64,000 nt of DNA. Origin: Eledone cirrhosa (taxonomy: Eukaryota). The translations under genes were made by a program, and so were the position numbers. Shown here piece after piece: positions 1 to 52,108 of the stretch (positions are counted from its first letter, which is position 1; every line of letters begins with the position of its first letter). The stretch lies in contig OZ024743.1 of assembly GCA_964016885.1 (NCBI GenBank), positions 226,238,001 through 226,302,000 of the forward strand. Direction: 5' to 3'. The notes under the pieces are model-generated. The model saw nothing but the letters and a program-made list of their open reading frames with translations, was not told where the DNA came from and ran no database searches.

Positions 1-2565
1 ATAGGCTGTCCACAATTCAAGGTAGTCAGCTAAGCTACACGGACCACAAATTCATGATCTGTGTGCTTGACTTAGATAGGCTTCATAGACGAGGACCCGG
101 CTACTGGAAGCTAAACGCGTCCTTACCAGCGCGCAAGGGCTACAGAGACCGGATTAGCGAACTAGTTAAGCGGGCGTTGACGGGGGCCATCGTCAACAAC
201 AAGTGGTGGTTGCTCTGAAAAGAGCAATTAGAATATAGTCCATTAGGTTTAGTAAGGTTTTAGCAATAGAGAAAAATAGAGCAGAGGGAGAATTAGTTAG
301 AAAATTAGACGAGGCGCTTAGTAAAGGCATCGCGACCGACGTACTTGCGGCGAAATTGCCCCTTGACCAATTCTTCAATGCAAAGTACGAAAGCTCCGTT
401 GTCAGAGCTAGGGTGCGTGCTCTCAGACACGAGGGGACGAAAGCCGTTCAATGGGCCCGAGTGGCGGAGGCGCGTTGTGGCAACAAAGCCACGATCCGGT
501 CTTTGGTGGACCACGACGGGCGCATGCTACTCGATCCCGGGCAAATGTGTGAAACTTTTCAACGACACTTCGCACAGCTGTTCGGGGACAGCGTCGGGCC
601 GGATCGAGGGATGGACTTTAGTGTCTACCTGGACGGACTGCCGCGGCTCTCGGCCACTGAGGAGGAGTGTTGCGAAAAGCCGATAACAACCGCTGAAGTA
701 CGGGAGGCAATGACTGCCTGCACAAGGGGTAAATCGCCTGGTTTGGATGGTCTGCCCTATGAACTTGACGTACAAATGCCAAACTTGTTCGGAGGCCTCT
801 TGGCGGACGACTACTGCAACTGGCAACAGAACGGGAGAATTCCCAGCTCTGTGAGCCGAGGAGCGGTGGCGCTGCTGAGAAAGGATAACATAGATAATTT
901 TAGGCCCATAACTCTGCTAAACACAGAGTTCAATATTTTGGCGAAGGTGCTAGCAAAAAGGTTGGCGCTTGTCGTTGGTGGTCTGGTGGGAGAGGCACAG
1001 ACATGCGCCATTCCCGACAGATCCATCCACTACAACCTCCACCTCATGCGATACATCGTAGAGAGGGTAGCTAGGGAACCTGGCACGGGTGGGTCTTTGA
1101 GAAATTTAGATCAGTCGAAAGCCTTCGATAGGGTCGACCATCGTTACCTAGCGGCAGTCCTGAGGGCGGCTGGCTTTGGGCCCGTCTTCAGAGGCTGGAT
1201 CACTGCCATGCACAGCGACATCTGCTCTGTAGTGAGAGTGAACGGTCACCTTTCGGAACCGTTCAACATCATGCGCTCGGTCCACCAAGGATGTCCCCTC
1301 TCGTCCCTATTGTACGTATTGACTCTCGACCAATTACTGCACAAACTGGAGACGTTGAGGGGGGTCCCGCACGAACTAGGATGCGGAAGATCCGTGTCAG
1401 CATATGCGGACGATGTCACCGTAGTGGTGTCGAACGCCAAACACATCGAGGCGATCGGCAGGGTGGCTTCTCTCACCCAGAAATGGGCCGAAAGGAAGCT
1501 ATCCCTGAAAGGTCGAGCGGAGGTGGCTAACACGTACATCGCGTCCGTCATCTACTACCGCCTGACCGTCGTACCTTGTCCTAAGCCCCGCCTGACTGCG
1601 CTGGAGCGTTTGCTCTTTCGCTTCTTGTGGAAGGGACGCGCTCCGATGGTCAGGCGCTCCATCTGCTGTCAACACCCGCTACGTGGAGGGCTGGGCATGC
1701 CGTGGCTGATGATGCGCAGACACGCGCTCAGGCTACGACATCTTCACCTCTTCCTCGACGGTGATCAGGTGTGGTCGCCGTTTGCTAGACACGTTTTTCC
1801 CCAGCTCGTCTCCTTGACGGAGCTGCAGTCCTGGGTCAAGCGAAGACCGAGAGGGACCGCTTGGAGACTGGAATGTCTTCAGGCGTCACAGCCCTCGACC
1901 AATCGGGCAATGTGATCGGTGGAAACTCCTCCTCGGCGTTCTATAGGGGATTAGTGGAGGGGAAGTGCGACGACGTACTTGGAGAAACTCTAGGCGTCGA
2001 CGAAAATCAACTAGCCAATCTCTTCGGAAGGACTTTCGAGCCGGGGCCTATGGACAACTTCCAGAAATCCCTGGCCTGGCAGTGCTACCGAGGAGCCTTG
2101 CCAGTTCGGGATAAACTTTACAGGCATGGAGGTGCCGTCAGCCGGGCATGTCCGAGATGCGCACAGGGCGACGAAACCGTCCTGCACGCACTCGTCCAGT
2201 GTCCGAGAATTGCTGACTTGTGGGTTTATGTCGAACACCTGCTGTCACGTGTAGGACGGATCCAGCTATCAGCTGAGTCCATCGTGAGGATTGCCCCGCC
2301 CTCTTCCTTTAGCCGGGAAGGGCAGGCAGTTTTTATCTGTCTGGTGGCCATGGCGAGAGAGATAGTATGGTGGACACGTTTGAAAGGGCTGAAGACGAGC
2401 ACTTACCTCTTCGGTGATGCTCTGATTGACTTTTTCAAATTTCATTTGAAAAGGAAAATCAGAGTAGAGAGGGAAGTGCTCTCTTCCCAGCATTTTGTTG
2501 AAAGATGGGTGAGAGAAGCAAGTATGGCCCGAGTGAATGGGCCTACTCTGAGTATATATCTGTAA
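1..2565 (+). pseudogene. Disrupted ORF2 (APE-RT-Zn finger) of Tx1-like element T1
   Basis: ORFs 356-1915 and 1861-2565 joined by a frameshift; versus the copy at 8561 it lacks a long segment after EAIG (junction near 1460) and a few residues in RKD..NFRP. Confidence 0.88.
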
Positions 2566-6379: not shown

Positions 6380-6615
6380 AAATAATCTAGCTGTCGTCTG
6401 TTCTACAGCGTAGATGTAATTCACTTCGCGCAGAAGTTTTGTTCAAATTTATTGCGGAAATTTTGTAAGTTCAATTTTAATTTTGATACTATTGTGTAGC
6501 TTGACCCCCGTCTGAACTGTCAGGCGGTGGGTCAGCTCATCTTTACCCCTCCTAGGGGTGAACAACCTGTTTTTAAAAATTTTGTGGCATAAAAAATTTC
6601 AATCGTCTGACAGAA

Positions 6616-8527
6616 ATGTTAAACGAAGCTAACGAAAATGGTGGTGGGGGGACAGCGGTAAGAGTTGTAAGCTCGCACGCTTTAGTCTCCCCTTCCTTCC
6701 CAACTAACGTCATAGAGAAGGAAAGGAAAAATAAAATAAAAACAGACGAATCTGCGGAGAAAAATGACGAAAACGCAAATCTGGACATTGATTCCAACAA
6801 CGAAAAAAAAAAAAATTTGAAAAATTGAATGACAATATTAATACCACAAACAAAGACACGACAAACACAAAAATAACATTTGAAAACAACATCATAACAG
6901 AAAGCAAAGCAGACGACAAAGTCAACACCAATAATATTTCATTTGCACAAACAACAAAGAAATCTTTGACATATATACCTGCAAATATTTCAGATGTGGC
7001 ACAAAGAATTACAGACGCCAAACAATACATAACTGAAGGAGAAAATGGTATTTTATCGGTAAAAATGCCTCAAGAACTCACCAAAGACATTGAAAGTCGA
7101 ACGGTCATTTTCCGCACCATCAACAACATTTCTAAAAAACCTGAACAGCCAACTCAAACAGAAATCAAAACAGTTATTACAGAAGTACTTAATGAAACCA
7201 CTTTCATAAGAAAAGACAGACTGTATGGAAGCCTAGCGATTATTATGAAGAACGAATCGGCAGCAAAAAAATGTGTTTTGTCACCGATTCGTTCGAAAAG
7301 TTTTACCTTTTATCCATCTTATATGGGTAAAAGAACTCAACGCATATGGCTGGATGCAATGATGCCAGATGTGGATTACTGCTGGCTCATAGCTGGCTTC
7401 ATCGATCCAGCGAATGACAACGTGATTTCCATTGGGAAAACCACAGGCAATGCGTTCAGTGGAACAGGTATAGAACTTGTAGTGCAAATGAAGCCTAAAC
7501 GCATCGCTCAAATACCCGACAGAATCCTATTAGAGGGCCACGGGTATATAAACATTACCGTGGAGGGGAGAAGGCCGTCCTGTCATATCTGTGCAGGCAG
7601 AGGGCACCTGAAGGCGGCTTGTCCCCAACTCAACAAAAATAAAACCCTGCTACCAACACCAGCTCCACCACCACCACCACAACAGATAAACAAACAACAA
7701 AACTCAGTCCCACCCAACCCGTCCCTCAGTAAAACTACACCACCACCACAACACAAACAGTCAAACACATTACCCCAAAACAAAATACAGGCCCACCCAA
7801 CCCCTCACTCAATAAAACAACACAACCACCGCAGCCACAACACACAACACAGTCTAACATAGTGACATCCATCTCCCCCACAAAGAAAACCAACACGGAA
7901 ACATTAACAGCAAACATACCTCTTCCCTCCAACACTGAAGATAACCCAACAAATTCGGAGGAAAAAACGGAGTCCTTCAGACAGATTAAAAGGAAAAAAA
8001 GAAAACATGTGCAAAACACACAAGGCCAAACAACCCCCACCCACATGTCATCACAATCCAACAAAACACAAAACACCCCTCCAGCAACAAATAAAACCAA
8101 ACCTGCCCCTCCCCTCTTCGAAACACTCACACCATCCGAAAAAAAGACATTACACTATACTTACATCAACAGAAACAAAAATAAATTAAATGAACTCATA
8201 AACAATAATCCTTCGGTACAAACCGAAGGTGTAAACTTTGTTTCTTCAGAAAACTACCCACATTTAAAATTAATAAAGATCCCAATGAACCTCTTCCAAA
8301 AACTAAAAAAGGATTTTAAGGAGGACGTAGGACTACCCTCTGTCAAACCCATAAACTGCGTCCTACTAAAAAGCTTTCCCCCTCCTCTTCCCCTCCCCAA
8401 CACAACTCCAAACACCCCAACCCAACCACACACTGACGACCCCACACCACCTCAAGACACCCCTTCACCCAACACCCCCGACCCCATGGAAGTCGTGCGA
8501 CCCGAACCCCGGGAAGCAGAAAGGTAG
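6616..8527 (+). pseudogene. ORF1 (gag-like, CCHC zinc knuckle CHICAGRGHLKAAC, Pro/Thr-rich tail), frameshifted
   Basis: ORFs 6616-6828, 6825-7862 and 7862-8527; shifts at the A-run near 6803-6815 and near 7765. Confidence 0.85.
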
Positions 8528-8560
8528 GTCAATACACTCTCCTTTGGCTTTGCCGCCCAC

Positions 8561-11500
8561 ATGGATGTGTTAAGAGTAGGATGTTTGAATGCACGTGGCC
8601 TGGGCTCAACTTGGAAGCAAGCAATGCTTCTAAATAACCTCAGGTCATGTGGTATAAATGTAATGGTTATCTGTGAGACACGGATCAGCGTCGTGCGGTA
8701 GCTGGCCCCTACCTTCGATGACTTTGAGGTGCATGCATCTCTCTGTCAACCTGGAGGTGGGGGTGGGGTTGTCGTACTGCTGCAAAAACACCTGGGTCTT
8801 GCCGTACAGGCTGTTCACTCGGACCCGGAGGGTCGTTTGTTGGTGCTAGACGTTGGCAGTACTGAAGGTGAGGCCTTGAGACTAGTCGCCGTCTACTCCC
8901 TTTTCGGAGCTGAACGGCCCGACTTCTTCCACCGTTTGGAGACTTTTCTGGGAACGTCGCGTTCCCTGCTTCTAGCGGGGGATTGGAATGACATCCTAGA
9001 TGCAAGTTGGGACTATGCAGGAGCATGTCCTAATAGAGGGGGGTGTAACAGCCTCAAGGGGTTACTCGATCGTTTTAACTTGGTCGATAGATATCGACTA
9101 GATTTTCCAACTGTGCCTACCTGGACTTGGACGAACCACAGTGGTCAATCTAGATCGTACTTAGATAGACTCTTAGTTAGAAGCAAGGATAGGGACATAT
9201 TAAGCTGTCCAGAAATGCTCACGGTTGGCTATACGGATCACAAATTAGTGACCTGCGTAGTCAATCTCGAGAAAACACATAAACAGGGTCCCGGTTACTG
9301 GAAACTTAATTTGTCTTTACCGGCAAAAGAGACTTACAGAAACCGGATTAGCAGGTTAGTTAAGGAGAGGTTGACAGGTGCAATCGTCAACAACCGATGG
9401 TGGGCATCTCTCAAAAGAGAGATTAGAACAGAATCAATAAGTTATAGCAAGATGTTAGCTGCCCATAGGAATAGAAACGAGAAAGAATTAACAGGTAAAT
9501 TAGAAGAGGCAATGAAGAGCGAAGATGTGGCCAGAGTGCTGGCATCGAGGACGGCTTTGAACCAGTTTTTCGTTGCAAAGCACGAAGGCTGCGTCATTCG
9601 AAGTAAAATACGTGCTCTAGGTAATGAGGGGGCCAAAGCCGTTGGCTGGGCCCACGTGACAGAAGCTAAGAGTGGAAATCGATCCACCATCCGGTCGTTG
9701 CAAGACGAGGATGGACGGGTGATCCGGGAGCCTAAGCAGATGTGCGAGGCCTTTCAAAGGCACTTTGCCCGATTATTCGGGGGAGGAGAGGGTCCGGGCG
9801 GGGACGTGGATTTCGGTCCATACCTCGACGGCCTGCCGCGTCTCTCGAGCGAAGAGGCAGAGTCCTGCGAGGGACCAATCTCGGCTGATGAGTTCGGGGA
9901 TTATCTGAGCCAATGCAGCAGACGCAAATCTCCAGGTCTCGATGGTATACCTTACGAACTTTATTTAGCAATGCCGGTCTTCTCCTCCGAACTCCTCGAA
10001 GCGGTCTACTGCAATTGGCAGCAGAACGGGAGAATTCCTTGTTCTGTAGCCAAGGGCGTAGTCTCGCTGGTGAGGAAGGACGAGAACAAGGGAGATAGTA
10101 TACATAATTTTCGGCCCATAACCCTGCTAAACACAGAGTTAAAGATTTTGGCCAAGGTTTTAGCAAAGAGGTTGGCGCTTGTCGTCGGTGACCTGGTGGG
10201 AGATGCGCAGACATGTGCTATCCCATCCAGGTTCATTCACGATAACCTCCACCTCATGCGATACATCATAGAGAGGGTTGGCAACAAACCCGGCTTCGGT
10301 GGGGTCCTGATCAACTTGGATCAGTCTAAGGCCTTCGATAGGGTCGACCATGGTTACCTGGATGCGGTGCTAGCGGCGGCTGGGTTCGGTCTTGTTTTCA
10401 GAGGCTGGATCACTGCCTTGCATAGCAACCACATCTGTTCTAGGATCAAGGTGAACGGCTACCTTTCGAAGCCGTTCGAAATCACACGATCCATTCAACA
10501 GGGGTGCCCTCTCTCCTCCCTTCTGTACGTATTGACTCTCGAGCCTTTACTGAGGAAGTTGGAGTTGTTGCAGGGTATCCCCCTGGAACCAGGATTGAGC
10601 CAAGCGGTGTCGGCCTACGCCGATGACGTAACAGTAATGGTATCGACCGACTCGGAGATCGAGGCGATCGGTACCTTACTGGAGGATTACGAAAGGTTGT
10701 CAGGAGCGAAACTGAACCGGGAAAAATTCATCGGGCTGCAACTCGGAACGTGGAGAGGCGGACCGATGCCTCCTGATGGTGTCGTCGGACACTGGACGGA
10801 GGGCCCGGTAAAGTTGCTTGGGGTCTGGTTTGGACCGGACCTCCAGGTGGAAAAGAACTGGAACGAGGTTACGAACAAGGTGTTTGAACTAACCCAGAAA
10901 TGGGCCAAGTGCAAGCTGTCCCTAAAAGGCCGGGCGGAGGTGGCGAACATTTACATAGCGTCCGTCACTTACTACCGCCTAACTGTCGTGCCTTGCCCTA
11001 AGGAATCACTCACCACCATGGAACGTATGCTCTTCCAATTTCTTTGGAAGAAGCGCCCTCCTATGGTGAGAAGATCCATCTGCTGCCAACAACCTTCGAA
11101 AGGATGGCTGGGGATGCCGTAGTTGATGATGCGTAGGCACGCATTAAGGCTACGGCACCTACAGGTATTCCTCACTGGTCAACCGGTGTGGGCTCCGTTC
11201 GTGAAACGAGCCTTTCCGAGACTCGTCTCGTTCAACGAGCTACAGTCCTGGGTCAAGCAAAGATCCGGAAAACTGGGAGACTGGCACACTGAGTGTGCTC
11301 AGGCGTCAGGGCTCTCTGGCAAGCGGGCCAGGCCATCGGTGGAGAATCCACCTCATCATTCTATAGAGGGCTGGTGGCTAGCAGGGGCGATGACACCCTT
11401 GGAGAGTCGCTGGACATGGAAGAAGACGAACTGTCCAGCCTGTTCGGTAGGACTTTCGGCCCAGCACCAATGGACAACTTCCAGAAGTCACTGGCCTGAC

Positions 11501-11997
11501 AGTGCTACCGGGGGGCTCTACCCGTTCGAGAGAGGCTCTACAGACACGGGCGCCCGGGCAGGGATCCCTCAAAAAAGATTTGCCCTAGATGCGTGCGTCA
11601 CGAAGAAACCGTTGCCCACGCATTGGTGCAATGTCCGGGCGTGGCTGATCTGTGGGGCTACGCCGAACGACTGCTGTCGCGGGTGGCGCCGATTCAATTG
11701 ACCGCCGAGTCCGTGATGACAATCAAACCGCCTCCCCTCTTCACAAAGGAAGCAAAGGCGGTTTTTCTGTGCGTAATAGCCATGTTGAAAGAGGTTGTTT
11801 GGTGGACACGATTGAAAGGTCTGAGGTCAGGCAACATCCTCTCTGGCCATAGTCTGGTCTACTTCTTCCGATATCACTTCGGAAGAAGGATAAGAATGGA
11901 GAGAGAGGTGCTTGGCCACAGGCAGTTTTATGAAAGGTGGGTGATAGTGACGAGAATGGCTCGTGTAAATGGGCCTTCTCTGTATACCATCCTGTAG
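8561..11997 (+). pseudogene. ORF2 (APE endonuclease-RT-Zn finger) with stops and a frameshift
   Basis: MDVLRVGCLNARGL start, GDWN, SYLDR, TDHK; RT QGCPLS and YADD; CPRC..H..C; stops at about 8698, 11120 and 11497 where copy B has CAG or TGG. Confidence 0.92.
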
Positions 11998-12211
11998 GTA
12001 AAGAAGTAAAGGAGAGGGGAGCACCTTCTCCATGTGCTCCCCGGGCAAAGGATTGCACACTTTTTCGGGGGTGTGTGCAACCCCCATCACGTCCCCTCCC
12101 TTTTGAGGTTATTTTCGATTATTTTCATGATACACCCTTTTTACTCGATTGTATGTAAACTCCCCCTTTGTATTTGTCCCTTCTTTTTATGCCTTTATGG
12201 TAAATAAAGAA

Positions 12212-12290: not shown

Positions 12291-12942
<652 letters not shown>

Positions 12943-13223
12943 GTATATATATGTATATATACATATGAATTAAATTCAAACAGAAGATAAGGCGTCCGTC
13001 ATCAGTGATCTTCCAGCCGTCGTTGGTATTTCTTCGCATTAAAGAACATATACCTCTGGCTGATGCGAGCAATAACTAAAAAAAAGTTATTGGGACACGT
13101 AGAATAGGGTGAAGCGAGCGAGACATGTAAAGAAACAGAGATGGTAATGCAACGGAAAGAGAGGAAGAGGAGAAACAGGTCTATACATATATACACATTT
13201 ATATATATATATATATATATAAA

Positions 13224-13264
<41 letters not shown>

Positions 13265-13663
13265 GTATGGACCTGTTTCATACATATTCATACATATATC
13301 AATGATATACATAAATGGAAACTATATTTATAAAACGATATTTATTCTATTATATATATTTCAAGGGTACCAAATCTTTGGTACGCGCTCAACAGATGAA
13401 GTACAAAGTTTGTTTTATAAATATTGATATATCCAGGAATGAAACCTTAACGGTTCAAGTTTCACCTGTATAGTTATTCCATTTATTAATATCATTGATA
13501 TTATACTCCAGAAAATTTGTCGAGTGCTTCGAATCTGTTATAAATATATCTGTTGAATTACCAACAAATTAAATATTCCTTTGCTTATATATACATATAT
13601 ATAGATACATATATATATATATATATATATATTGTTATACTTTGGGAGGGTCATGTTGCGAAA

Positions 13664-13706
<43 letters not shown>

Positions 13707-13906
13707 ATTAGAGTTAACACTTAATTGGAACCCTGCAACTATTAAGCTCCAAGTATAAATACTGAGCTGATAAATAATATATAGTAAGAAACACAGTAAA
13801 CCGTGTGTCTAAAATTACAAGGGTTGAAAAACCACATTTGTTTGAAATATTTAACCAAGAAGCAGACAGAATGATAAAATATACAAACCGCCTCAATAAC
13901 CATTAT

Positions 13907-13988
13907 ATCTCTCGGACAGATTATCCCTAATCTGTTTCGCCCTGAGTGTGTTTGTAACAGATAATCCTGGGCTTCATCAGCGAGAGAT
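13907..13988 (-). ncRNA. Type I hammerhead ribozyme
   Basis: Minus strand: ATCTCTCG-CTGATGA-A-GCCC..GGGC-GAAA-CAGATT aggg at AATCTG-TC^CGAGAGAT; 8-bp stem I, full stem III, GUC site. Confidence 0.9.
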
Positions 13989-14246
13989 TCTGATTAAATG
14001 CCACAAACACTATTTGCCAACGTTCACACAGAAAGATGAATTTGTCACCTCGTGCTCCGCTAGTCAAACGTGGTAAGCGTGTATTGAATAGAAATAGAAA
14101 TAACAGTCCAACACACGCAACTTAATAAGCTCAACTTTCGTGTCTAAAATTACGAGGGTATAAGATACCACTAATGTTTCAAAAATTTAATCTAAACCAT
14201 ACAGTATGATATATTAATTGTATACTGACCGTATCAAAAACATTTC

Positions 14247-14334
14247 ATCTCTCGGACAGATTTTAGACTCAATCTGTTTCGCCCTGAAAAATTATGTTTC
14301 TAACATAATCTGTAGACTATCATCAGCGAGAGAT
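14247..14334 (-). ncRNA. Type I hammerhead ribozyme
   Basis: ATCTCTCG-CTGATGA-..GTCT..GGGC-GAAA-CAGATT..AATCTG-TC^CGAGAGAT. Confidence 0.82.
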
Positions 14335-14613
14335 AGATTAAATGAAACAAAACACCTCTAACAGCAATTTGAGGACCAAAGATATGTTCCTTGTGGTCTA
14401 CACGCTATAAGTGGTATGAGTAGTTATGCTAGAAATTAATAACTCTATATTTTATTTGTATTTCGGCTCCTTGAATGGGTGAGCTTATACACTGAGTGGG
14501 ATAAGGCTATTATTTCTAGCATAACTACTCATACCACGTATAGCGTGTAGACCACGAGGAACATATCTTTGGTCCTCAAATTGCTGTTAGAGGTGGTTTG
14601 TTTCATTTGATCT

Positions 14614-14703
14614 ATCTCTCGCTGATGATAGTCTACAGATTATCTGTTACAAACACAATTTTTCAGGGCGAAACAGATTGAGTATAAAATCTGTCCGCGA
14701 GAT
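14614..14703 (+). ncRNA. Type I hammerhead ribozyme (inverted copy)
   Basis: ATCTCTCG-CTGATGA-..-GAAA-CAGATT..AATCTG-TC^CGCGAGAT. Confidence 0.82.
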
Positions 14704-14812
14704 GAAATGTTTTTGATACAGTCAGTATACAATTAATATATCATACTGTATGGTTAAGATTAAATTTTTAAAACATTAGTGGTATCTTATATATATATAT
14801 ATATATATATAT

Positions 14813-15498
14813 GAATAAGCATGTATACGTACATACATATATGTATACAGACGTACAGTAGTATGTATATATACATACATGCATATATATATACATATGT
14901 ACGTATGGATTCACCGAACATTTATTATAATGCTCGGTGTGTTTGTAAAGAAACATCCCGAATTAAGCCGTACAGTGTCTAGCAACCATCGTTGCTCATT
15001 TGTTCAACACTGACAAAGAAACGCTGTACTAGTTTCAAGCTTATTAGCTATCGTCAGCAACGTATACCTTCCTGCCAGATGGTTGAACGTCTGAAAGTAT
15101 ATACTTTCCTTATGCATATTAACGGCTGAGCAGCCTAATTTGCATATCAAGTGAGTTAATCGGCCGGGGTACCGAAAACGATAAACGGAAAAAATGAAAC
15201 GAAATTTCATTTCTTACTCTTAGTACGGCTGCTACTTAAATATAAGTATGTATACGTACACACATATATGTATACAGACGTACAGATATATACATACATG
15301 CACACATATATATATATGTACGTATGGATTCACCGAACATTTATTATAATGCTCGGTGTGTTTGTAAAGAAACATCCCGAATTAAGCCGTACAGTGTCTA
15401 GCAACCATCGTTGCTCGTTTGTTCAACACTGACAAAGGAACGCTGTACTAGTTTCAAGCTAGTGAGAAATAAAATTTCGTTTCATTTTTTCCGTTTAT
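14813..15498 (-). mobile_element. Family G retrozyme-like tandem repeat (unit about 420-450 bp), about 1.5 units with a short inverted end
   Basis: Period about 427 (14816 vs 15243); same family at 26490-26980 and 47540-48430. Confidence 0.85.
15021..15063 (-). ncRNA. Minimal type I hammerhead (family G)
   Basis: ACGTTG-CTGACGA-T-AGCT aata AGCT-T-GAAA-CTAG-TA^CAGCGT; palindromic CTAG in place of stem III. Confidence 0.85.
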
Positions 15499-15547
15499 AT
15501 ATATATATATATATAGAAGTGGTTACACAACAGTTACTTCACCATAC

Positions 15548-15585
15548 CGAGAACAATTGTTTCACCTTAGCGGATCCTCAGCTCA
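15548..15585 (-). ncRNA. Minimal type I hammerhead
   Basis: TGAG-CTGAGGA-TCCgctaaGGT-GAAA-CAATTG-TT^CTCG; short stem II. Confidence 0.7.
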
Positions 15586-15801
15586 TAATCTTTATGCGCT
15601 GACAATTGTTCTCGGTATGGTGAACTAACTGTTGTGTAACCAGTTCTACTTAACTCGTCCAATGGACTGGGTGCTCTACCACTACGGATGTTACCTTCCA
15701 GTGTTCTACCGCTATATATATATATGGGACGAGTTAGATAGAAGTGGTTACACAACAGTTAGTTCACCATACCGAGAACAATTGTCAGCGCGTAAAGATT
15801 A

Positions 15802-15839
15802 TGAGCTGAGGATCCGCTAAGGTGAAACAATTGTTCTCG
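15802..15839 (+). ncRNA. Minimal type I hammerhead
   Basis: Same motif on the plus strand. Confidence 0.7.
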
Positions 15840-16128
15840 GTATGGTGAAGTAACTGTTGTGTAACCACTTCTATATATATATATGCTATCATTGAATCAT
15901 TGAAGCCAGTGTTATGATGTACGTTTGAAGAATAAAAAGGAGGAGATCTATGACTGGACATTGAAACCAGTGGTGTGTTATTGTTTGAGGGAAAGACTAA
16001 GAGAGTGGAACTATATGACGGAACAGTGACTGAAGAGACAACAGTGCCTTATTAAGCTCTAATTAGTTACTTAGATATTCTGCCAAGAACATCTATCTGA
16101 TCTATAATTTGTTTTTTAATTATAAGTA

Positions 16129-17786: not shown

Positions 17787-18078
17787 ATATATATATATAT
17801 CTTTCTATTTATCTATCTATCTATCTATTTATCTATCTATAAATAATCTAGCTGTCGTCTGTTCTACAGCGTAGATGTAATTCACTTCGCGTAGAAGTTT
17901 TGTTCAAATTTATTGCGGAAATTTTGTAAGTTCAATTTTAATTTTGATACTGTTGTGTAGCTTGACCCCCCGTCTGAACTGTCAGGCGGTGGGTCAGCTC
18001 ATCTTTACCCCTTCTAGGGGTGAAAAACCTGTTTTTAAAAATTTTGTGGCATAAACAAATTTCAATCGTCTGACAGAA

Positions 18079-19978
18079 ATGTTAAACGAAGCTAACGAAT
18101 ATAGTGGTGGGGGGACAGCGGTAAGAGTTGTAAGCTCGCATGCTTTAGTCCCCCCCTTCCTTCCCAACTAACGTCATAGAGAAGGAAGGAAAAAATAAAA
18201 TAAAAACAGACGAATCTGCGGAAAAAAATGACGAAAACACAAATCTGGACATGGATTCCAACCACGAAAAAAAAAATTTGAAAAATTGCATGACAATATT
18301 AATACCACAAACAAAGACACAACAAACACAAAAATAACATTTGAAAACAACATCATAACAGAAAGCAAAGCAGACGACAAAGTCAACACCAATAAGATTT
18401 CATTTGCACAAACAACAAAGAAATCTTTGACATATATACCTGAAAATATTTCAGATGTGGCACAAAGAATTGCAGACGCCAAACAATATATAACTGAAGG
18501 AGAGAATGGTATTTTATCGGTAAAAATGCCTCAAGAACTCACCAAAGACATTGAAAGTCGAACGGTCGTTTTGCGCACCATCAACAACATTTCTAAAAAA
18601 CCTGAACAGCCAACTCAAACAGAAATCAAAACAGTACTTACAGAAGTACTTAATGAAACCACTTTCATGAGAAAAGACAGACTGTATGGAAGCCTAGCGA
18701 TTATTATGAAGAACGAATCGGCGGCAAAAAAATGTGCTTTGTCACCGATTCGTTCGAAAAATTTTACCTTTTATCTATCTTATATGAGTAAAAGAACTCA
18801 ACGCATATGGCTGGATGCAATGATGCCAGATGTGGACTACTGCTGGCTCATAGCTGGCTTCATCGATCCAGCGAATGACAACGTGATTTCCATTGGGAAA
18901 ACCACAAGCAATGCGTTCAGTGGAGCAGGTATAGAACTTGTAGTGCAAATGAAGCCTGAACGCATCGCCCAAATACCCGACAGAATCCTATTAGATGGCC
19001 ACGGGTATATAAACATTAGCGTGGAGGGGAGAAGGCCGTCCTGTCATATCTGTGCAGGCAGAGGGACCTGAAGGCGGCTTGTCCTCAACTCAACAAAAAG
19101 AAAACCCTGCTACCAACACCAGCTCCACCACCACCACCACAACAGATAAACAAACAACAAAACTCAGTCCCACCCAACCCGTCCCTCAGTAAAACTACAC
19201 CACCATCACAACACAAACAGTCACAACACATCACCCAAAACAAAATACAGGCCCACCCAACCCCTCACGCAATAAAACAACACAACCACCGCAGCCACAA
19301 CACACAACACAGTCTAACATAGTGACATCCATCTCCCCCACAAAGAAAACCAACACGGAAACATTACCAGCAAACATACCTCTTCCCTCCAACACTGAAG
19401 ATAACCCAACGAATTCGGAGGAAGGAACGGAGTCCTTCAGACAGATTAAAACGAAAAAAAGAAAACATGTGCAAAACACACAAGGCCAAACAACCCCCGC
19501 CCAAATGTCAACACAATCCAACAAAACACAAAACACCCCTCCAGCAATAAACAAAACCAAACCTGCCCCTCCCCTCTTCGAAACACTCACACCATCCGAA
19601 AAAAAGACATTACACTATACTTACATCAACAGAAACAATAATAAATTAAATGAACGCATAAACAATAATCCTTCGGTACAACCGAAGGTGTAAACTTTGT
19701 TTCTTCAGAAAACTACCCACATTTAAAATTAATAAAGATCCCAATGAACCTCTACCAAAAACTAAAAAAGGATTTTAAGGAGGACGTAGGACCACCCTCT
19801 GTCAAACCCATAAACCGCGTCATCCTAAAAAGCTTTCCCGCTCCCCTTCCCCTCCCCAACACAACTCCAAACACCCCAACCTCACCACACACTGACGACT
19901 CCACACCACCACAAGACACCCCTTCACCCAACACCCATGGAAGTCTTGCGACCCGAACCCCGGGAAGCAGAAAGGTAG
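18079..19978 (+). pseudogene. ORF1 of copy B, frameshifted
   Basis: ORFs 18286-19071, 19322-19693 and 19744 onward match copy A ORF1. Confidence 0.85.
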
Positions 19979-20011
19979 GTCTCTACACTCTCCTTTGGCT
20001 CTGCCGCCCAC

Positions 20012-23000
20012 ATGGATGTGTTAAGAGTAGGGTGTTTGAATGCACGTGGCCTGGGCTCAACTTGGAAGCAAGCAAAGCTTCTAAATGACCTCAGGTCATT
20101 TGGTATAAATGTAATGGTTATCTGTGCGACTCGGATCAGCGTCGTGCGGCAGCTGGCCTCTACCTTCGATGACTTGGAGGTGCATGCATCTCTCTGTCAA
20201 CCGTGAGGTGGGGTGGGGTTGTCGTACTGCTGCAAAAACATCTGGGTCTTGCCGTACAGGTTGTTCACTCGGACCCGGAGGGTCGTTTGTTGGTGCTAGA
20301 CGTTGGCAGTAATGAAGGTGCGGCCTTGAGACTGGTCGCCGTCTACTCCCCTTTCGGAGCTGAACGGCCCGACTTCATCCACCGTTTGGAGACTTTTCTG
20401 GGAACGTCGCGTTCCCTGCTTCTAGCGGGGGATTGGAATGACATCCTAGATGCACGTTGGGACTGTGCAGGAGCATGTCCTAATAGAGGAGGTGTAACAG
20501 CCTTAAGGGGTTACTCGGCCGTTTTAACTTGGTCGATAGATATCGACTAGATTTTCCAACTGTGCCTACCTGGACTTGCAGAAACCACAGTGGTCAATCT
20601 AGATCGTACTTAGATAGATTCTTAGTTAGAAGTAAGGATGGGGACATATTAAGCTGTCCAGAAATGCGCACGGTTGGCTATACGGATCACAAATTAGTGA
20701 CCTGCGTAGTCAATCTCGAGAAAACACATAAACAGGGTCCCGGTTACTGGAAACTTAATTTGTCTTTACCGGCAAAAGAGACTTACAGAAACAGGATTAG
20801 CAGATTAGTTAAGGAGAGGTTGACGGGTGCAATCGTCAACAACCGATGGTGGGCATCTCTCAAAAGAGAGATTAGAACAGAATCAATAAGTTATAGCAAG
20901 ATGTTAGCTGCCCATAGGAATAGAAACGAGAAAGAATTAACAGGTAAATTAGAAGAGGCAATGAAGAGCGAAGATGTGGCCAGAGTGCTGGCATCGAGGA
21001 CGGCCTTGAACCAGTTTTTCGATGCAAAGCACGAAGGCTGCGTCATTCGAAGTAAAATACGTGCTCTAGGTAATGAGGGGGCCAAAGCCGTTGGCTGGGC
21101 CCGCGTGACAGAAGCTAAGAGTGGAAATCGATCCACCATCCGGTCGTTGCAAGATGAGGATGGACGGGTGATCCGGGAGACTAAGCAGATGTGCGAGGCA
21201 TTTCAAAGGCACTTTGCATGATTATTCGGGGGAGGAGAGGGTCCGGGCGGGGACGTGGATTTCGGTCGATACCTCGACGGCCTGCCGCGTCTCTCGAGCG
21301 AAGAGGCAGATTCCTGCCAGGGACCAATCTCGGCTGATGAGATCGGGGATGCGCTGAGCCAATGCAGCAGACGCAAATCTCCAGGTCTCGATGGTATACC
21401 TTACAAACTTTATTTAGCAATGCCGGTCTTCTTCTCCGAACTCCTCGAAGCGGTCTACTGCATTTGGCAGCAGAACGGGAGAATTCTTTGTTCTGTAGCC
21501 AAGGGCGTAGTCTCGCTGGTGAGGAAGGACGAGAACAATGGGGATAGTATAAATAATTTTTGGCCCATAACCCTGCTAAACACAGAGTTAAAGATTTTGG
21601 CCAAGGTGTTAGCAAAGAGGTTGGCGCTTGTCGTGGGTAGCCTGGTGGGAGATGCGCAGACATGTGCTATCCTATCCAGGTCCATTCACGATAACCTCCA
21701 CCTCATGCGATACATCATAGAGAGGGTTGGCAACAAACCCGGCTTCGGTGGGGCCCTGATCAACTTGGATCAGTCTAAGGCCTTCGTTAGGGTCGACCAT
21801 GGTTACCTGGATGCGGTGCTAGCGGCGGCTGGGTTCGGTCCTGTTTTCAGAGGCTGGATCACTGCCTTACATAGCAACCACATCTGTTCTAGGATCAAGG
21901 TGAACGGCTACCTTTCGAAGCCGTTCGAAATCACACGATCCATTCGACAGGGGTGCCCTCTCTCCTCCCTTCTGTACGTATTGACTCTCGAGCCTTTACT
22001 GAGGAAGTTGGAGTTGTTGCAGGGTATCCCCCTGTAACCAGGATTGAGCAAAGCGGTGTCGGCCTACGCCGATGACGTAACAGTAATGGTATCGACCGAC
22101 TCGGAGATCGAGGCGATCGGTACCTTACTGGAGGATTACGAAAGGTTGTCAGGAGCGAAACTGAACCGGGAAAAATCCATCGGGCTGCAACTCGGAACGT
22201 GGAGAGGCAGACCGATGCCTCCCGACGGTGCCGTCGGACACTGGACGGAGGGCCCGGTAAAGTTGCTTGGGGTCTGGTTTGGACCGGACCTCCAGGTGGA
22301 AAAGAACTGGGACGAGGTTACGAACAAGGTGTTTGCACTAATCCAGAAATGGGCCAAGTGTAAGCTGTCCCTAAAAGGCCGGGCGGAGGTGGCGAACATT
22401 TACATAGCGTCCGTCACTCACTACCGCCTGACTGTCGTGCCTTGCCCTAAGGAAACACTCACCACCATGGAACGCATGATCTTCCAATTTCTTCGGAAGA
22501 AGCGCCCTCCTATGGTGAGAAGATCCATCTGCTGCCAACAACCTTCGAAAGGAGGGCTGGGGATGTCGTGGTTGATGATGCGTAGGCACGCATTAAGGCT
22601 ACGGCACCTACAGGTATTCCTCACTGGTCAACCGGTGTGGGCTCCGTTCGTGAAACGATTTTCCGAGACTCGTCTCGCTCACCGAGCTGCAGTCCCGGGT
22701 CAAGCAAAGATCCGGAAAACTGGGAGACTGGCACACTGAGTGTGCTCAGGCGCTCAGGGCTCTCTGGCAAGCGGGCCAGGCCATCGGTGGAGAATCCACC
22801 TCATCATTCTATAGAGGGCTGGTGGCTAGCAGGGGCGATGACATCCTTGGAGAGTCGCTGGACATGGAAGAGGACGAACTGGCCAGCCTGTTCGGTAGGA
22901 CTTTCGGCCCGGGACCAATGGACAACTTCCAGAAGTCACTAGCCTGGCAGTGCTACCGAGGGCTCTACCCGTTCGAGAGACGCTCTACAGACACGGGCGC

Positions 23001-23444
23001 CCGGGCAGGGATCCCTCGAAAAAGATTTGCCCTAGATGCGTGCGTCACGAAGAAACCGTTGCGCACGCATTGGTGCAATGTCCGGGCGTGGCTGATCTGT
23101 GGGGCTACGCCGAACGACTGCTGTCGCGGGTGGCGCCGATTCGATTGACCGCCGAGTCTGTGATGACAATCAAACCGCCTCCCCTCTTCACAAAGGAAGC
23201 AAAGGCGGTTTTTCTGTGCGTAATAGCCATGTTGAAAGAGGTTGTTTGGTGGACACGACTGAAAGGTCTGAGGTCAGGCAACTTCCTCTCTGGCCATAGT
23301 CTGGTCTACTTCTTCCGATATCACTTCGGAAGAAGGATAAGAATGGAGAGAGAGGTGCTTGGCCACAGCCAGTTTTATGAAAGGTGGGTGATAGTGGCGA
23401 GAATGGCTCGTGTAAATAGGCCTTCTCTGTATACCATCCTGTAG
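20012..23444 (+). pseudogene. ORF2 (APE-RT-Zn finger) of copy B, multiple frameshifts and stops
   Basis: Six consecutive ORF fragments matching copy A. Confidence 0.92.
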
Positions 23445-23658
23445 GTAAAGAAGTGAAGGAGAGGGGAGCACCTTCTCCATGTGCTCCCCGGGCAAAGGAT
23501 TGCACACTTTTTCGGGGGTGTGTGCAACCCCCATCACGTCCCCTCCCTTTTGAGGTTGTTTTCGATTATTTTCATTTTATACCCTTTTTACTCGATTGTA
23601 TGTAAACTCCCCCTTTGTATTTGTCCCTTCTTTTTATGCCTTTATGGTAAATAAAGAA

Positions 23659-24137: not shown

Positions 24138-24370
24138 TATAGATATATATATATAGTAAGAATAATAAATTTGAAGACTAAAATCCAAAGAGGGCTCGAT
24201 AAGGATAAATATATATATAGAGATTTTGAGTATATGTTGGTTGTATACCAACACCATAGTATGCAGGCTGGAGCACTCGACGAAGTGCGTAGGTTGGTTT
24301 GGTTACTCCGGGGTAATGTAAAATAAAGTTAAATAAAAAGTCAAATGTTTAAAATTTAGCTTCGTTTATT

Positions 24371-24425
24371 ACAGCTATATATATTTCAGTGACAACCATC
24401 TTTGGCTGTGACCTCTTCAGGCAGT
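24371..24425 (-). ncRNA. Type I hammerhead (family H)
   Basis: ACTGC-CTGAAGA-GGTCACAGCCA aaga TGGTTGTCACT-GAAA-TATATA-TA^GCTGT. Confidence 0.78.
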
Positions 24426-24644
24426 TTGAATTAGTGTGGTATAGACAAGTACATATGTTGTTGAGGTGTATAATATTGTCAATACTCTGATATGCCCAGT
24501 TGCTGGTTGGGTTGTTAATTCACTGAGGAACTGGAATCATATGATTCATATGATTCCATTTCCTCAGGAACTGGACATATCAGAGTATTGACAATATTAT
24601 ACACCTCAACAACATATGTACTTGTCTATACCATACTAATTCAA

Positions 24645-24699
24645 ACTGCCTGAAGAGGTCACAGCCAAAGATGGCTGTCACTGAAATATATATAGCAGT
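24645..24699 (+). ncRNA. Type I hammerhead (family H)
   Basis: ACTGC-CTGAAGA-stem II-GAAA-TATATA-TA^GCAGT. Confidence 0.85.
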
Positions 24700-24744
24700 A
24701 ATAAACGAAGCTAAATTTTAAACATTTGACTTTTTATTTAACTT

Positions 24745-24827
<83 letters not shown>

Positions 24828-26489: not shown

Positions 26490-26980
26490 AAGTATGTATA
26501 CGTACATACATATATGTATACATACGTTCAGTAGTATGTATATTTATACATACATGCACATATATATATATATATGCATGTATGGATTTACCGAACATTT
26601 ATTATAATGCTCGGTGTGTTTGTAAACGAACATCCCGAATTAAGCCGTACAGTGTTTAGCAACAAGGAAGGTGCTGACGATAGCTAATAAGCTTGAAACT
26701 AGTACATCGTTCCTTTGTCAGTGTTGAACAAAAGGGCAACGATGGTTGCTAAACACTGTACGGCTTAATTCGGGATGTTTGTTTACAAAGACACCGAGCA
26801 TTATAATAAATGTTCGGTAAATCCATATATGCATATATATATATATGTGTGCATGTATATATATATATACATACTACTGTACGTCTGTATACATATATGC
26901 ATGTACGTATACATACTTATATTTAAGTAACAGCCGTACTAAGAGTGAGAAATGAAATTTCGTTTCATTTTTCCGTTTAT
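26490..26980. mobile_element. Family G copy arranged as an inverted repeat
   Basis: 26490-26663 is the reverse complement of about 26745-26920. Confidence 0.85.
26670..26710 (+). ncRNA. Minimal type I hammerhead (family G)
   Basis: GGTG-CTGACGA-TAGCTaataAGCTT-GAAA-CTAG-TA^CATC. Confidence 0.82.
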
Positions 26981-28554: not shown

Positions 28555-28712
28555 TATATATATACACACACACATATATATATATAAATATATATAAACG
28601 TTTGAATATGTATAATAAAGCCAAAACAATGCAGGTATGGACATAGAATAAAGAATGCAAATGCAAAAGATATTTGTTGACAATTAGTCTTTTACCTTAG
28701 ATTTATTTAAAT

Positions 28713-28752
28713 GTCCTTAATTTTCGAGATAATATCTCTTCATCAGAGGGAA
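28713..28752 (-). ncRNA. Minimal hammerhead in the P1 3' pLTR
   Basis: CCT-CTGATGA-A-GAGA tatta TCTC-GAAA-AT-TA^AGG. Confidence 0.7.
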
Positions 28753-29176
28753 TTAAAGGTCTCAAACCAGCGTTCTAAATAGCTTGCCAAGTCATGCTGA
28801 CAGGAAATGGTATAGAGTATCTGTTCTATCGCTAATGTCAAAGAGTTAAAATTAGGTGGATAAAGAGTAGTCTCCCTTTAAAAGGTTTTTTTTTTGTTTT
28901 TTTTTGTTTTTTTTATATACATGCCTGTTTAAGTGTGTGGGAGAATGCATGAAGGTGTAAGTATGTGAGTGTGTGTGTGTGAGTGTGAGAAGATAAGTCT
29001 ATTCGTAAATGTGGGGGATAGGTGTTATCTGGTGTTAGAACTGGTTTTGTGTGTGTATGTGTGAGAGAGAATAAGTGGAGGTGTAAGCGTGTGTGTGTGT
29101 GTGCGTGCGTCCGTGTGTGTATGTGTGTGTGTGGGGGGCGGGGGGGGGGGGGGTAAATATGGGGCTAGAAGCTGTA

Positions 29177-30870
29177 TCAGGTTATAAATTGGGTGTTGAG
29201 TTCTAGTCTATTATTGATTGGTGGTTGTGTTTTATCTATAATTAGTGCTTCCTTAATTCTAAGATTGCCGAGGTTTCTTTCCTTACTTTCTATCCTAACT
29301 GTTATGGTTTTGTCGGTGTTTTTGCATTTAACTAGGTGTTTCTTAAATGAGGAAGCGTTAGAATTGAGGTGTTCTTTTATTCTTATGTGGAGTGGTCTGG
29401 TGGTGCTAGTTACGTAGAAGTTGTTGCATTTGTCACACTCTAGTCTGTATACGACGTAAGCCTGGTGGCATAGGTCTGTGTCGTTGATGGGGCAATTGGC
29501 TAGTCTGCAGCAGTTGTCATGTCTGGTGGAGTGTCTTTTGGTTAGCTGTCCGCGTAGAGAAGGACCTGAGTGGGCCAGTTGGATATCTAGTCCCTCTCGT
29601 CTGATAGCTCTGCGGATGGCTGTTGTTGTTTCTTCACTGGAGTGTGGGAGCTTCAGGAAGCAAGTGTTAGTGTCTCGGGTGTGGTGTCCTCTGTTCTTTC
29701 TGGCACGGTTTGTGGTGGATCCGTTCAGTTTGAGTACTTCCAGGAAATGTGTGGTGTGTGTGTCTCGGTCTCTAGCGTCGGTGCATTTGTTCTGGATACG
29801 TGCCAGTTCGTTCCTTATGTATCCGAACTTGGCACCGAGTGGGAGGGCCGATCTGAAATGTACGAACAGGCCCCTACTGGCGGCTTTTTATTTATAGAAG
29901 CAGGTGTGGATGTTGCCTCCCTCTGTTACCCTGAGTTGGAAGTCCAGTAGGGATAGGGATCCGCGGTCATCGGGGTGTTCCATGCTGAACTTTATACTGG
30001 CGTCCATGCTGGAGAATGTTGCGTATATTTTATCTGCCTCCTCACGGGATGATGTAAGGATGAGTATGTCATCTACATATCGGGTGAAGAAGGTATGGGA
30101 ATGGCAGGTGTTGAGGGCTCGGCATTCTAGCTGGTTCATGTAGGTGATGGCCAGCAGTCCCGATAGGCTGGATCCCATGGGTAATCCTGCTGTCAGTCTG
30201 TATGTGTGGTGGTGGAAGGTGAAGTACGTGTTGTCTACTGTGAAGGACAAAAGCTGGTGTATGTCCGTCGGGTGGAGGCCGTAGCAGTGGATGTCCTCTG
30301 CGACCACGCAGTCTGTCAATAAATCGACAGCTGGATGGGCGGCGACTGTAGTGTAGAGGGAGACAACGTCGAGGCTAAAGGCGTATTTATTTAGTTTAAG
30401 TTGTTCTGGCTGGAGTTGGTGTAGTCTACGTATAACTTCGTCGGAGCTACTGACATGCCCGGGAAAGGTGGAGAGTAGAGGCTTGAGGACCTGGGAAAGG
30501 AGCCAGAAAATTTTGTATAGGGGTCCTTCTATGCTAGAGACGATGGGTCTTATTTGCGTCTTAGTACTCTTCTTGTGGGTCTTGATGAGGTGGTAGAAAG
30601 TGGGCAGTCTGCTATTTCTAGTGGTGTAGTTGAGCTTAACTTTATTTGGGAGTTGTCTTCTCCTACAGATATCGAACCAGATGGAGTTGGTCTGTTTTTC
30701 GATCTGGGCTGCAGTCATGTCCGGGATCTCTGTGTATAATTCATTGTCGCTTAGGTGTTCAAAGGCTACGTTGTTGTATGTGGCTTGAGAGATGACACAA
30801 AACTCTTTACCTTTGTCGGATGGTAAGTATATAAGTTCCCTATTCCGTAGGTTCTTCAGGGCGAGTTGTT
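29177..30870 (-). pseudogene. P1 RT-GIY-YIG ORF (one in-frame stop at 29888)
   Basis: PSDKGKEF, KTHK..RPIVS, DVVSLY, GLPMGS, RYVDD; my manual translation continues CRLANCP..C..VVYRLECDKCNNFYV..RIKEH..EAL..IN to TGA at 29177. Confidence 0.88.
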
Positions 30871-31425
30871 GAACATACTACACTGCCAATACAGAGGAAC
30901 AAGGCAACAACACACGCACATACACACAAGCGAGACAACAACACACGCACACACACAGTAACATTTAACAAACAGACAGAGAATTGGCTGACAGCTAGCG
31001 CCAACCCACTCCCACATTCGGCCGCTGACCTCTGCCCGACCGACCCCATTTCATGCGCACGCGCGCTCTGCTGAATACCTCAGATATTCAAAACAACAAA
31101 CAGCGGAGGACGCGTTTCGCACCTTTCCGACAGATAACCTTTCCCCCAACCCGGAAAAAAACACCAGTTGATGGATGTGAATCCGAAATATATAGGGACT
31201 ATTAAATCTCTCCCAAGGTAACTCTCTCTCTCTGGTGTTGTTATTTTTATTTTATCCTTTATACTCTTTCCTTTATTCTTCTACACGCCTTATACACACC
31301 ACGCATCTCAACGTACACCCACTTACATCTCTCTCTCCACCACCGGATCTTGTTACCCGGAGATTTACCCATTTGCATTGTCGAGGCTTCCAAACGACTT
31401 AAAGATATTTACCTATTATTCCACA

Positions 31426-34024: not shown

Positions 34025-34420
34025 GTTAACAAACGATGCAGCAACACACGCACACACACACACAAACGAGACAACTACACACGCACACGCACACACACAC
34101 AGTAGCATTCCACCATACGAACATACTACACTGCCAATACAGAGGAACAAGGCAACAACACACGTACACACACACACACTCAAGCGAGACAACAACACAC
34201 ACACACACACACACACAGTAACATTTAACAAACAGGCAGAGAATGGACTGACAGCTAGCGCCACCCCACTCCCACATTCGGCCGCTGACCTCTGCCCGAC
34301 CGACCCCATTTCACGCGCACGCGCGCTCTGTTGAATACCTCAGATATTCAAAATAACAAACAGCGGAGGACGCGTTTCGCACCTTTCCGACAGACAACCT
34401 TTCCCCCACCCCGGAAAAAA

Positions 34421-34456
34421 CCCCAGTTGATGGATGTGAATCCGAAATATATAGGG
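34421..34456 (+). ncRNA. Variant-core minimal hammerhead-like motif in the P2 pLTR (also 31162-31197 and 56697-56731)
   Basis: CCC-CAGTTGA-T-GGAT gtga ATCC-GAAA-TATA-TA^GGG; core deviates from CUGANGA. Confidence 0.55.
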
Positions 34457-34659
34457 ACAATTAAATCTCTCCCAAGGTAACTCTCTCTCTCGTGTTGTTA
34501 TTTTTATTTTATCCTTTATACTTTTTCCTTCATTCTTCTACGTACACCCACTTACATCTCTCTTTCCACCACCGGATCTTGTTACCCGGAGATTTACCCA
34601 TTTGCATTGTCGAGGCTTCCAAACGACTTAAAGATATTTACCCATATATATATATATAC

Positions 34660-36699: not shown

Positions 36700-40498
<3,799 letters not shown>

Positions 40499-40641: not shown

Positions 40642-40818
40642 ATTGGCAGTACCGGTATATGGTCTGACGCCATGTTTGCAAAGAGTTACGGCCCTTTATG
40701 GTCTGACTTCAAATGCCGCCGAGGTTAACTTTGCCCTTCATCCTTACGGGGTCGATAAAATAAAGCATCAGTAAAACACTGGGATAACTGCTGGCCTTGT
40801 GCCAAAAGTAGAAACAAG
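40642..40818 (+). mobile_element. tRNA-derived SINE, MetaSINE-like core
   Basis: TTCAAATGCC B-box-like motif; TTTGCCCTTCATCCTTACGGGGTCGATAAAATAAAG core. Confidence 0.85.
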
Positions 40819-40949
40819 TATATTAGTGTTTGCTATTGGTTCGTATATTTCTTTCGTTAACTAAATTTTTAATATTTAATTTTGGCTAACATTATGCGTA
40901 ACTCTTTCCATATGTGTAAACATCTATGTTTATACATCAAGCAGTTATG

Positions 40950-45889: not shown

Positions 45890-46245
45890 ATATATAGTTC
45901 CTCAGATATACTGCTATATACAGTTCCCCAGAGAAATAACAACACAACTAGCTGCTGGACATATCGATGTATTGACGGAGTAAAACACGCTTCAACAACA
46001 TGTGTACCAGTCTTTCCCACACCAATTCGGACTGCCTGAAGAGGTCACAGCCAATGATGACTGTGACCGAAATATATATATAGCAGTATATCTATAATTT
46101 ATAATAAACGAAGCCAAATTTTACATATTTGACTTAATTATTTTACATTACTCCGAAGTAAACAAACCAGCCTGCGTACTCCGTCGAGTGCTCCAATCTG
46201 GATAATGCTATGTCGTTAAAGAACCATCATATACTAACAAAAAAA
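45890..46245 (+). mobile_element. Family H element, single arm
   Basis: Diverged homolog of 24222-24750. Confidence 0.8.
46031..46087 (+). ncRNA. Type I hammerhead (family H)
   Basis: ACTGC-CTGAAGA-GGTCACAG..CTGTGACC-GAAA-TATATATA-TA^GCAGT; perfect stems I and II. Confidence 0.9.
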
Positions 46246-52020: not shown

Positions 52021-52108
52021 TATATAATATATTCATTCATATATAAATACACACAAATATATATATATATGAGTATATATATATACATGTGTGAATAATA
52101 TATATATA

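Follow-up and report, generated by a model that had tools for sequence, protein, structure and literature searches.

The locus described here lies in a 64-kb window of Eledone cirrhosa DNA (the window being the whole stretch of 64,000 nucleotides that was analysed) and consists of an insertion of 1.09 kb (13703..14791) between two (TA)n runs, at 13663..13702 on the left and 14788..14812 on the right. The insertion is non-coding: its longest stop-free stretch is 83 codons, and it holds no RT + GIY-YIG frame of the kind that marks an autonomous PLE. Six PLE frames of the window gave no tblastn match to it, neither as a coding trace nor as the sign of an autonomous partner. Three related units can be distinguished (GC 34% for the insertion, 34-37% for units and element). 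U1 (13805..14139, minus strand) carries the ribozyme HH1 and is diverged from the other two; U2 (14140..14436, minus strand) carries HH2 and is 5'-truncated at about 14436; U3 (14477..14791, plus strand) carries HH3. The left arm (14159-14436, in U2) and the right arm (14512-14791, in U3) are identical at 267 of 280 positions, with perfect runs of 39, 35, 33, 27 and 26 bp, and it is this inverted arm of about 280 bp that places the third ribozyme on the plus strand, as an earlier note on this DNA had proposed. The copies stand head to head with their 3' ends toward the TA runs, the right run lying 93 nt 3' of the HH3 cut.

All three ribozymes are type I hammerheads, each with the core C3-A9, G12-A15, U16.1 and H17, three helices, and helix I open. 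HH1 (13907..13988, minus strand; core start 13980, C17 at 13915) has a helix I of 8 bp, an extra A after A9, a helix II of 4 bp closed by a 26-nt loop (13968-13943), a helix III of 8 bp and a GUC site with its predicted cut after 13915. In HH2 (14247..14334, minus strand; core start 14326, C17 at 14255) helix I is also 8 bp long, UA follows A9, helix II has 4 bp (two of them G.U) and a 29-nt loop with a hairpin of its own, helix III has 7 bp, and the predicted cut at the GUC site falls after 14255. HH3 (14614..14703, plus strand; core start 14622, C17 at 14695) is an inverted near-copy of HH2, with the same UA insert, 8 positions in helix I, a helix II of 4 bp, a 31-nt loop II, a helix III of 7 bp and a GUC site with its predicted cut after 14695; it is predicted to misfold. 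These helix III lengths of 7-8 bp include the A15.1-U16.1 pair, and loop III measures 4 nt in HH1 and 8 nt in HH2 and HH3. The helices adjoining the core are intact in HH1 and HH2, while HH3 has a U.C mismatch (U14619.C14698) at pair 3 of helix I. For HH2 a shorter alternative to helix II, formed through a GAAA inside loop II, was rejected; it leaves helix III with 2 bp and is absent in HH1 and HH3. The earlier description of three hammerheads with a full stem III and a GUC site, of two minus-strand ribozymes 340 nt apart (cut to cut), and of minimal forms close to the element thus agrees with what we find.

A strict hammerhead descriptor matched three times in the 64-kb window and not once in 200 block-shuffled windows. 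At gathering score Rfam gave 0 matches in the window, to a hammerhead or any other family, and it also missed the minimal hammerheads present there. When Rfam matches were taken by E-value over 12400-16100, 74 were found up to E = 10, none of them a hammerhead and nearly all of them microRNA models on simple repeats or foldbacks. In bacterial and archaeal genomes a helix III pattern had four exact matches, none with a hammerhead core within 80 nt upstream, which we take as chance, and phages and plasmids gave no match. A sigma-70 promoter scan found 6 sites against 8.5 expected; this bacterial consensus is uninformative for a eukaryote.

The history of the units can be read in part from where their likeness begins and ends. 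U3 resembles U1 well into the 75-nt spacer between the arms, to about 14477 (nhmmer, 0 of 300 shuffles; 1 of 1000 in a second test). Most of the spacer is therefore the 5' part of the plus-strand copy, as U3 aligns with U1 from about 14477, whereas U2 itself starts only at about 14436. The likeness of U1 and U3 begins at a similar distance from their cores, with a shared motif 152 and 141 nt upstream, and that of U1 and U2 stops 110 and 115 nt past their cuts. The sequence 5' of U3 (14437-14476) is unlike the 3' end of U2, contrary to a strict tandem unit, and the truncated member here is the first unit of the tandem. Because the arms are far more alike than U1 and U2, which are too diverged for Tandem Repeats Finder, the divergence of the tandem predates the inversion. 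The unassigned 3' extension (13703..13804, minus strand) bears a weak likeness to the start of a unit; as a third partial unit, which would make the full unit 383 nt, it was rejected as non-significant (96 and 104 of 300 shuffles, 111 and 264 of 1000). No core was found on the opposite strand inside any unit, so the ribozyme on the plus strand represents the same motif inverted at the DNA level. Neither nhmmer nor a covariance model built from the three copies, with filters off, found a further copy of the element in the 64-kb window, the best other match of the latter (E 0.17) falling on the element's own opposite strand; its status as a family thus rests on one locus.

In a global alignment of U1 and U2, all 28 positions of helices I and III and all 13 core positions are identical, as compared with 123 of 188 in the flanks (stems versus flanks, Fisher p 1.9e-5). 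The stems remain better kept when set against the better-conserved 3' flank alone (73 of 95; p 0.0018), and identity falls to 27 of 35 in domain II and 2 of 6 in loop III. The comparison of stems with flanks that had been called for, here made on two units, therefore came out in favour of the stems, and the surroundings have diverged as described. The further statement that only loops differ holds for helices I and III, which are unchanged, and not for helix II, where two C-G pairs have become U-G, nor for the insert after A9 (A vs UA). No compensatory change was seen at any of the 15 pairs of helices I and III, so that the support for these stems comes from conservation, not covariation, with U1 and U2 as its only two independent lineages. 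Judged from sequence, this selective conservation argues that the ribozymes were active while the two units diverged; local gene conversion could be an alternative source of the identical stem tract.

The folding of the RNA was predicted with ViennaRNA, in which pseudoknots and tertiary contacts lie outside the model. In isolation HH1 and HH2 fold into hammerheads, helix I having a probability of 0.78 and 0.82, and HH3, at 0.02, fails to do so; the z-scores for the whole folds of all three are modest (-1.1 to -1.9). In the native upstream context of HH1, all seven snapshots that vary the 5' start place the hammerhead 2.4-5.4 kcal/mol above the ensemble, and its cost over all 20 snapshots is 0.9-6.8 kcal/mol. 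The corresponding cost is 0.9-3.9 kcal/mol for HH2 without the arm and 9.2-11.8 kcal/mol for HH3 even without the opposing arm. These predictions call for caution over monomeric activity at this locus. HH1 and HH2 can probably cut as monomers, in line with the plausible monomeric activity of hammerheads with so long a helix III. HH3, by contrast, has probably decayed and been carried along as a passenger; the antisense copy probably arose as a by-product when the element inserted in the PLE manner, and is not best seen as a third functional ribozyme.

A read-through RNA of either strand is predicted to form a long hairpin (MFE -577 and -544 kcal/mol), which bears out the earlier note's expectation of long dsRNA. 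The same hairpin buries HH2 or HH3, and enforcing a hammerhead within it costs more than 100 kcal/mol; the proposed release of an RNA of about 340 nt consequently fails for the read-through transcript. Since read-through traps HH2 and HH3, release needs a transcript that starts in or near the spacer, past most of the arm. The RNA expected from double cleavage (13915..14254, minus strand, 340 nt) is predicted, as a circle, to have an MFE of -89.5 kcal/mol (z -3.9), with none of 100 shuffles as stable. Helices I and II are absent from this structure, and the ribozyme is blocked.

A candidate for a pseudoknot or a blocking helix lies at the 5' flank of HH1 (13992..14010, minus strand), which is complementary to loop II (13966-13948) over 12 bp + 5 bp. 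This predicted helix of 17 bp (-21.7 kcal/mol) was equalled in 0 of 2000 shuffles of either strand, in a test window chosen after the fold had been seen, and it competes with the HH1 hammerhead fold. Among sampled minus-strand 24-mers, the best non-overlapping partner of the loop is the matching HH2 flank (-15.9). The proximal 5 bp can form in all three copies, with one one-sided change (A-U to G-U) and no two-sided change, and the 19-nt partner in loop II is identical between HH1 and HH3. The pairing is weaker in HH2 (11 and 9 of 2000 shuffles) and HH3 (20 and 22 of 2000), and two G.U pairs of the HH1 helix are U.U mismatches in the other copies. What is more, the 3' flank of HH2, used as a control, pairs with loop II equally well (-14.1 vs -12.9), and the HH2 loop forms its own hairpin. 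The short form would be a pseudoknot, because it crosses helix I, while the full helix, which leaves a linker of 5 nt, should open helix II; two states are proposed on these grounds. The helix may thus act in one of two ways, as a brace or as an off-switch: the proximal 5-6 bp could steady the active fold as a pseudoknot, and pairing over the full length would keep the released RNA from folding into the ribozyme. The cutting rate of HH1 and HH2 may be set by this helix.

The element lies in a repeat-rich window with decayed retroelements and 116 tandem-repeat rows, mostly microsatellites. Relaxed searches yielded 13 hammerhead or hammerhead-like cores (those at 15581 and 15806 judged by eye, that at 47654 5'-truncated), which we grouped by eye into eight loci. 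An inverted piece is present at six of the eight, and head-to-head ribozymes on opposite strands occur at three: the element, 15516-15871 and 24220-24750. A long non-palindromic helix III is found only in HH1-HH3 among the 13 cores. The locus at 15516-15871 is a foldback flanked on both sides by (TA)n; its hammerhead-like cores, at 15581 (minus) and 15806 (plus), stand head to head, and its helix III region is palindromic. A second family (24220-24750 and 45921-46263) comprises hammerheads at 24420 (minus), 24650 (plus) and 46036 (plus), in which a TA run serves as helix III and the site ends in UA; the head-to-head pair at 24220-24750 has unequal 3' ends. Minimal hammerheads with a U.U at the base of helix II form a third family (47579-48431, 14903-15498 and 26576-26980), whose member at 47579 consists of a 451-nt tandem and a 72-nt inverted 5' piece. 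A foldback at 12441-12745, with 101-nt arms that are 91% identical, lies beside a (TA)n run; no hammerhead core was found in it.

Among 11 frames of the window that were scanned, three match RVT_1 and two match GIY-YIG just below the curated cut-off. One RT frame also carries an AP-type endonuclease domain, and one PLE-type RT frame has 139 homologs (best identity 58%), many of them annotated RT + GIY-YIG. A decayed PLE at 28586-30877 (minus) encodes RT followed by GIY-YIG; about 430 nt beyond its frame is a minimal hammerhead (28746), at a distance of 132 nt from the nearby (TA)n run. Two further PLE copies, 31222-34641 and 53786-56988 (both plus), are 93-95% identical over the coding part, with no hammerhead at their ends by the descriptors used. 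A PLE-like sequence at 37140-40244 (minus) combines RT and GIY-YIG-like frames, of which the upstream one contains a long run rich in asparagine. Two LINE copies with AP endonuclease and RT (6380-12211 and 17841-23658, about 96.6% identical) flank the studied region, each adjoining TCTA-type repeats, and a more distant relative (69%) lies at the start of the window (34-2550). A short interspersed repeat of about 185 nt is present in at least six copies, 76-94% alike (40642-40826, 49392-49589, 50406-50596, 51836-52033 and 59318-59983).

The element resembles the metazoan non-LTR retrozymes described in PMC7229834 and bioRxiv 10.64898/2026.07.22.740005 in its tandem non-coding units of a few hundred bases with a GC below 50%, in having one type I hammerhead per unit and a structured predicted circle, and in the presence of PLEs in the same genome. 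Its two consecutive units, 340 nt apart and with a GC of 34-37%, fall within the 150-450 bp and GC below 50% given for these elements (PMC7229834), which have been linked to pLTRs (bioRxiv 10.64898/2026.07.22.740005). It departs from them in its strongly diverged units, those of published retrozymes being near-identical. In PMC7229834 (Cervera and de la Pena), circles predicted to block their ribozyme, as here, are described only for viroids, retrozymes of plants and some of those from mussels; for the majority of metazoan retrozymes the circle is predicted with the ribozyme free, which must be blocked by unknown means. Of nine Xenopus retrozyme dimers that were predicted, only one showed cleavage in vitro (bioRxiv 10.64898/2026.07.22.740005), which counts against a retrozyme-type reading of the element.

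With the hammerheads of PLE pLTRs, notably those of the Hydra clade (PMC4209133; PMC8557442), the element shares an extra nucleotide after A9, opposite-strand pairs, a tandem and inverted layout, (TA)n flanks and a 3' end about 90-115 nt past the cut. The pairs reported in PMC4209133 lie 100-700 bp apart, and the extra nucleotide likewise follows position 9, a variant known with one inserted nucleotide. Among the PLE features described in PMC8557442 are partial tandems accompanied by a 5'-truncated copy in inverted orientation and, in the Hydra clade, (TA)n targets; the supplement of that paper gives an antisense hammerhead in Penelope-13_HM. The first four pairs of helix III are the same as in 4 of the 26 Hydra-clade rows of that supplement, which is a lead only. 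A difference is that no RT-EN frame is present in the element. The ribozyme itself is an atypical variant, with its long helix III, its loop II of 26-31 nt and the candidate helix between flank and loop II. Canonical metazoan hammerheads usually have a helix III of 1-2 bp (PMC4209133) as against 7-8 bp here, and, as read by eye, neither a helix III above 4 bp nor a loop II above 10 nt occurs in the 56 rows of PMC4209133 or in the 26 Hydra-clade rows of PMC8557442. Helix III and loop II of the element thus exceed all 82 published metazoan PLE rows compared, a set apart from the many invertebrate motifs of the PMC7229834 supplement, which may include closer relatives.

A large helix III is reported in PMC4209133 only for fungal and protist PLEs, and the monomeric activity is that of the fungal hammerheads; two rows of spike-moss PLE-X1, marked as deviating, have a loop II of about 30 nt, as in the element (PMC8557442 supplement). 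These are endonuclease-lacking, non-animal PLEs, those of fungi and protists with no recognised contact between helices I and II (PMC4209133). A stable helix III removes the requirement for a dimer in type I hammerheads (PMC4209133; PMC7761336). Monomeric activity is the less surprising because PMC7761336 reports a stable helix III and monomer cutting for the majority of type I motifs from invertebrates. In a viroid hammerhead, cleavage is moderately slowed by an additional A after A9 (PMC1636495); further hammerhead background was taken from PMC6155905. Perreault et al. (2011, PMC3088659) report loop II pseudoknots in hammerheads of all three types, amounting to about 40% of representatives; the Watson-Crick pairs of these beside helix I (see also PMC7936874) are similar to our candidate. 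The complementarity here reaches up to 17 bp, which should be too long alongside a closed helix II and, unlike known pseudoknots, may also be an off state; in the crystallised PK hammerhead (PMC11300833) the pseudoknot replaces helix II, unlike in the element. No published description of this hammerhead variant was found in the literature searched, which for the most part did not extend to subscription journals.

We consider it likely that the element is a non-coding, PLE-mobilised insertion of the retrozyme type. Its layout, a partial tandem with an inverted, 5'-truncated copy placed head to head, is ordinary for PLE-driven insertions and is an already-known PLE/retrozyme pattern. (TA)n microsatellite lies on both sides, and we give it modest weight because such runs are common in the window. 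In the scheme that we favour, a transcript of the tandem units would self-cleave at each GUC, and ligation may then turn the unit-length RNA into a circle. Acting in trans, a PLE reverse transcriptase-endonuclease would nick a (TA)n target and begin to copy the RNA at a point about 90-115 nt downstream of the ribozyme. If both target strands are primed, the outcome would be head-to-head copies, both 3' ends facing the TA flanks, and hence a ribozyme on the other strand. In published work a purified PLE protein cut AT-rich DNA on both strands and extended each of them, with copying begun 85-92 nt past the ribozyme cut (+111-118 vs +26; PMC11167929), and the right end of the element, 93 nt past the HH3 cut, is near this distance. 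Two features of that system count against the scheme: ribozyme cleavage needed the protein, and it was not needed for insertion (PMC11167929). So does the comparison with possible autonomous partners, in which six PLE frames of the window gave no tblastn hit and five PLE end regions only two DNA matches of 29-34 nt (E about 0.01). One circle should give near-identical units, and U1 and U2 diverged long before the arms, so that the source would be a master made of two units, or else a template jump linking two subfamilies, and not one small circle.

The alternative that fares best, which we regard as unlikely, is that a single insertion event joined 5'-truncated 3' ends (pLTR pieces) from two autonomous PLE subfamilies related to each other, and that these are the units, with no non-autonomous family and an accidental 340-nt spacing. 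Most PLE insertions are 5'-truncated, tandem and inverted (PMC8557442), U1 and U2 are too diverged for one circle, the sequence 5' of U3 is unlike the 3' end of U2, and the hammerhead at 28746 shows that long non-coding PLE ends exist in the window. Against this reading, the likeness of U1 and U3 begins at similar core distances, and the 340-nt circle is more structured than all 100 shuffles. The element has, moreover, no coding trace, and none of the 82 metazoan PLE rows has so long a helix III. It is very improbable that the host keeps the locus as a regulated dsRNA or a sense/antisense ribozyme device, as a source of small RNA or an editing substrate; the near-identity of the arms, their long perfect runs and the stability of the hairpin are what it would explain, yet two other loci of the eight have a head-to-head ribozyme pair, six of the eight have an inverted piece, the layout is a known PLE insertion product, and HH3 carries a mismatch in helix I. 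We give least credence of all to the idea that a viroid-like circle, replicating and equipped with ribozymes in both of its polarities, left an integrated copy here: the long helices, and a loop pseudoknot that may form, recall the hammerheads in HDV-like circles of toad and termite (PMC7936874), and the circle is self-paired with its ribozyme blocked, but those motifs are type III, the plus-strand ribozyme here is a DNA inversion with no opposite-strand core in any unit, and the (TA)n flanks and PLE-like ends indicate retrotransposition.

Within the favoured reading of a PLE-mobilised, retrozyme-type insertion, a more specific and tentative proposal, doubtful as a whole, is that the element belongs to a family of animal retrozymes that moves as a heterodimer of two diverged repeats and has a distinct type I variant, in which the long helix III and the extra nucleotides after A9 are combined with a 26-31 nt loop II that acts with the 5' flank as a two-state switch. 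The switch would form a short pseudoknot when cutting and a long helix protecting the circle. In the ribozyme, PLE traits, namely the extra core nucleotide and the TA flanks, are combined with a stem whose length would suffice for monomeric cutting, and the diverged tandem bears on how PLE enzymes build composite insertions. The element also offers a directly testable self-pairing block for retrozyme circles and, if the proposal of a heterodimer with a two-state switch is true, would provide a compact model of how metazoan retrozyme circles avoid re-cutting.
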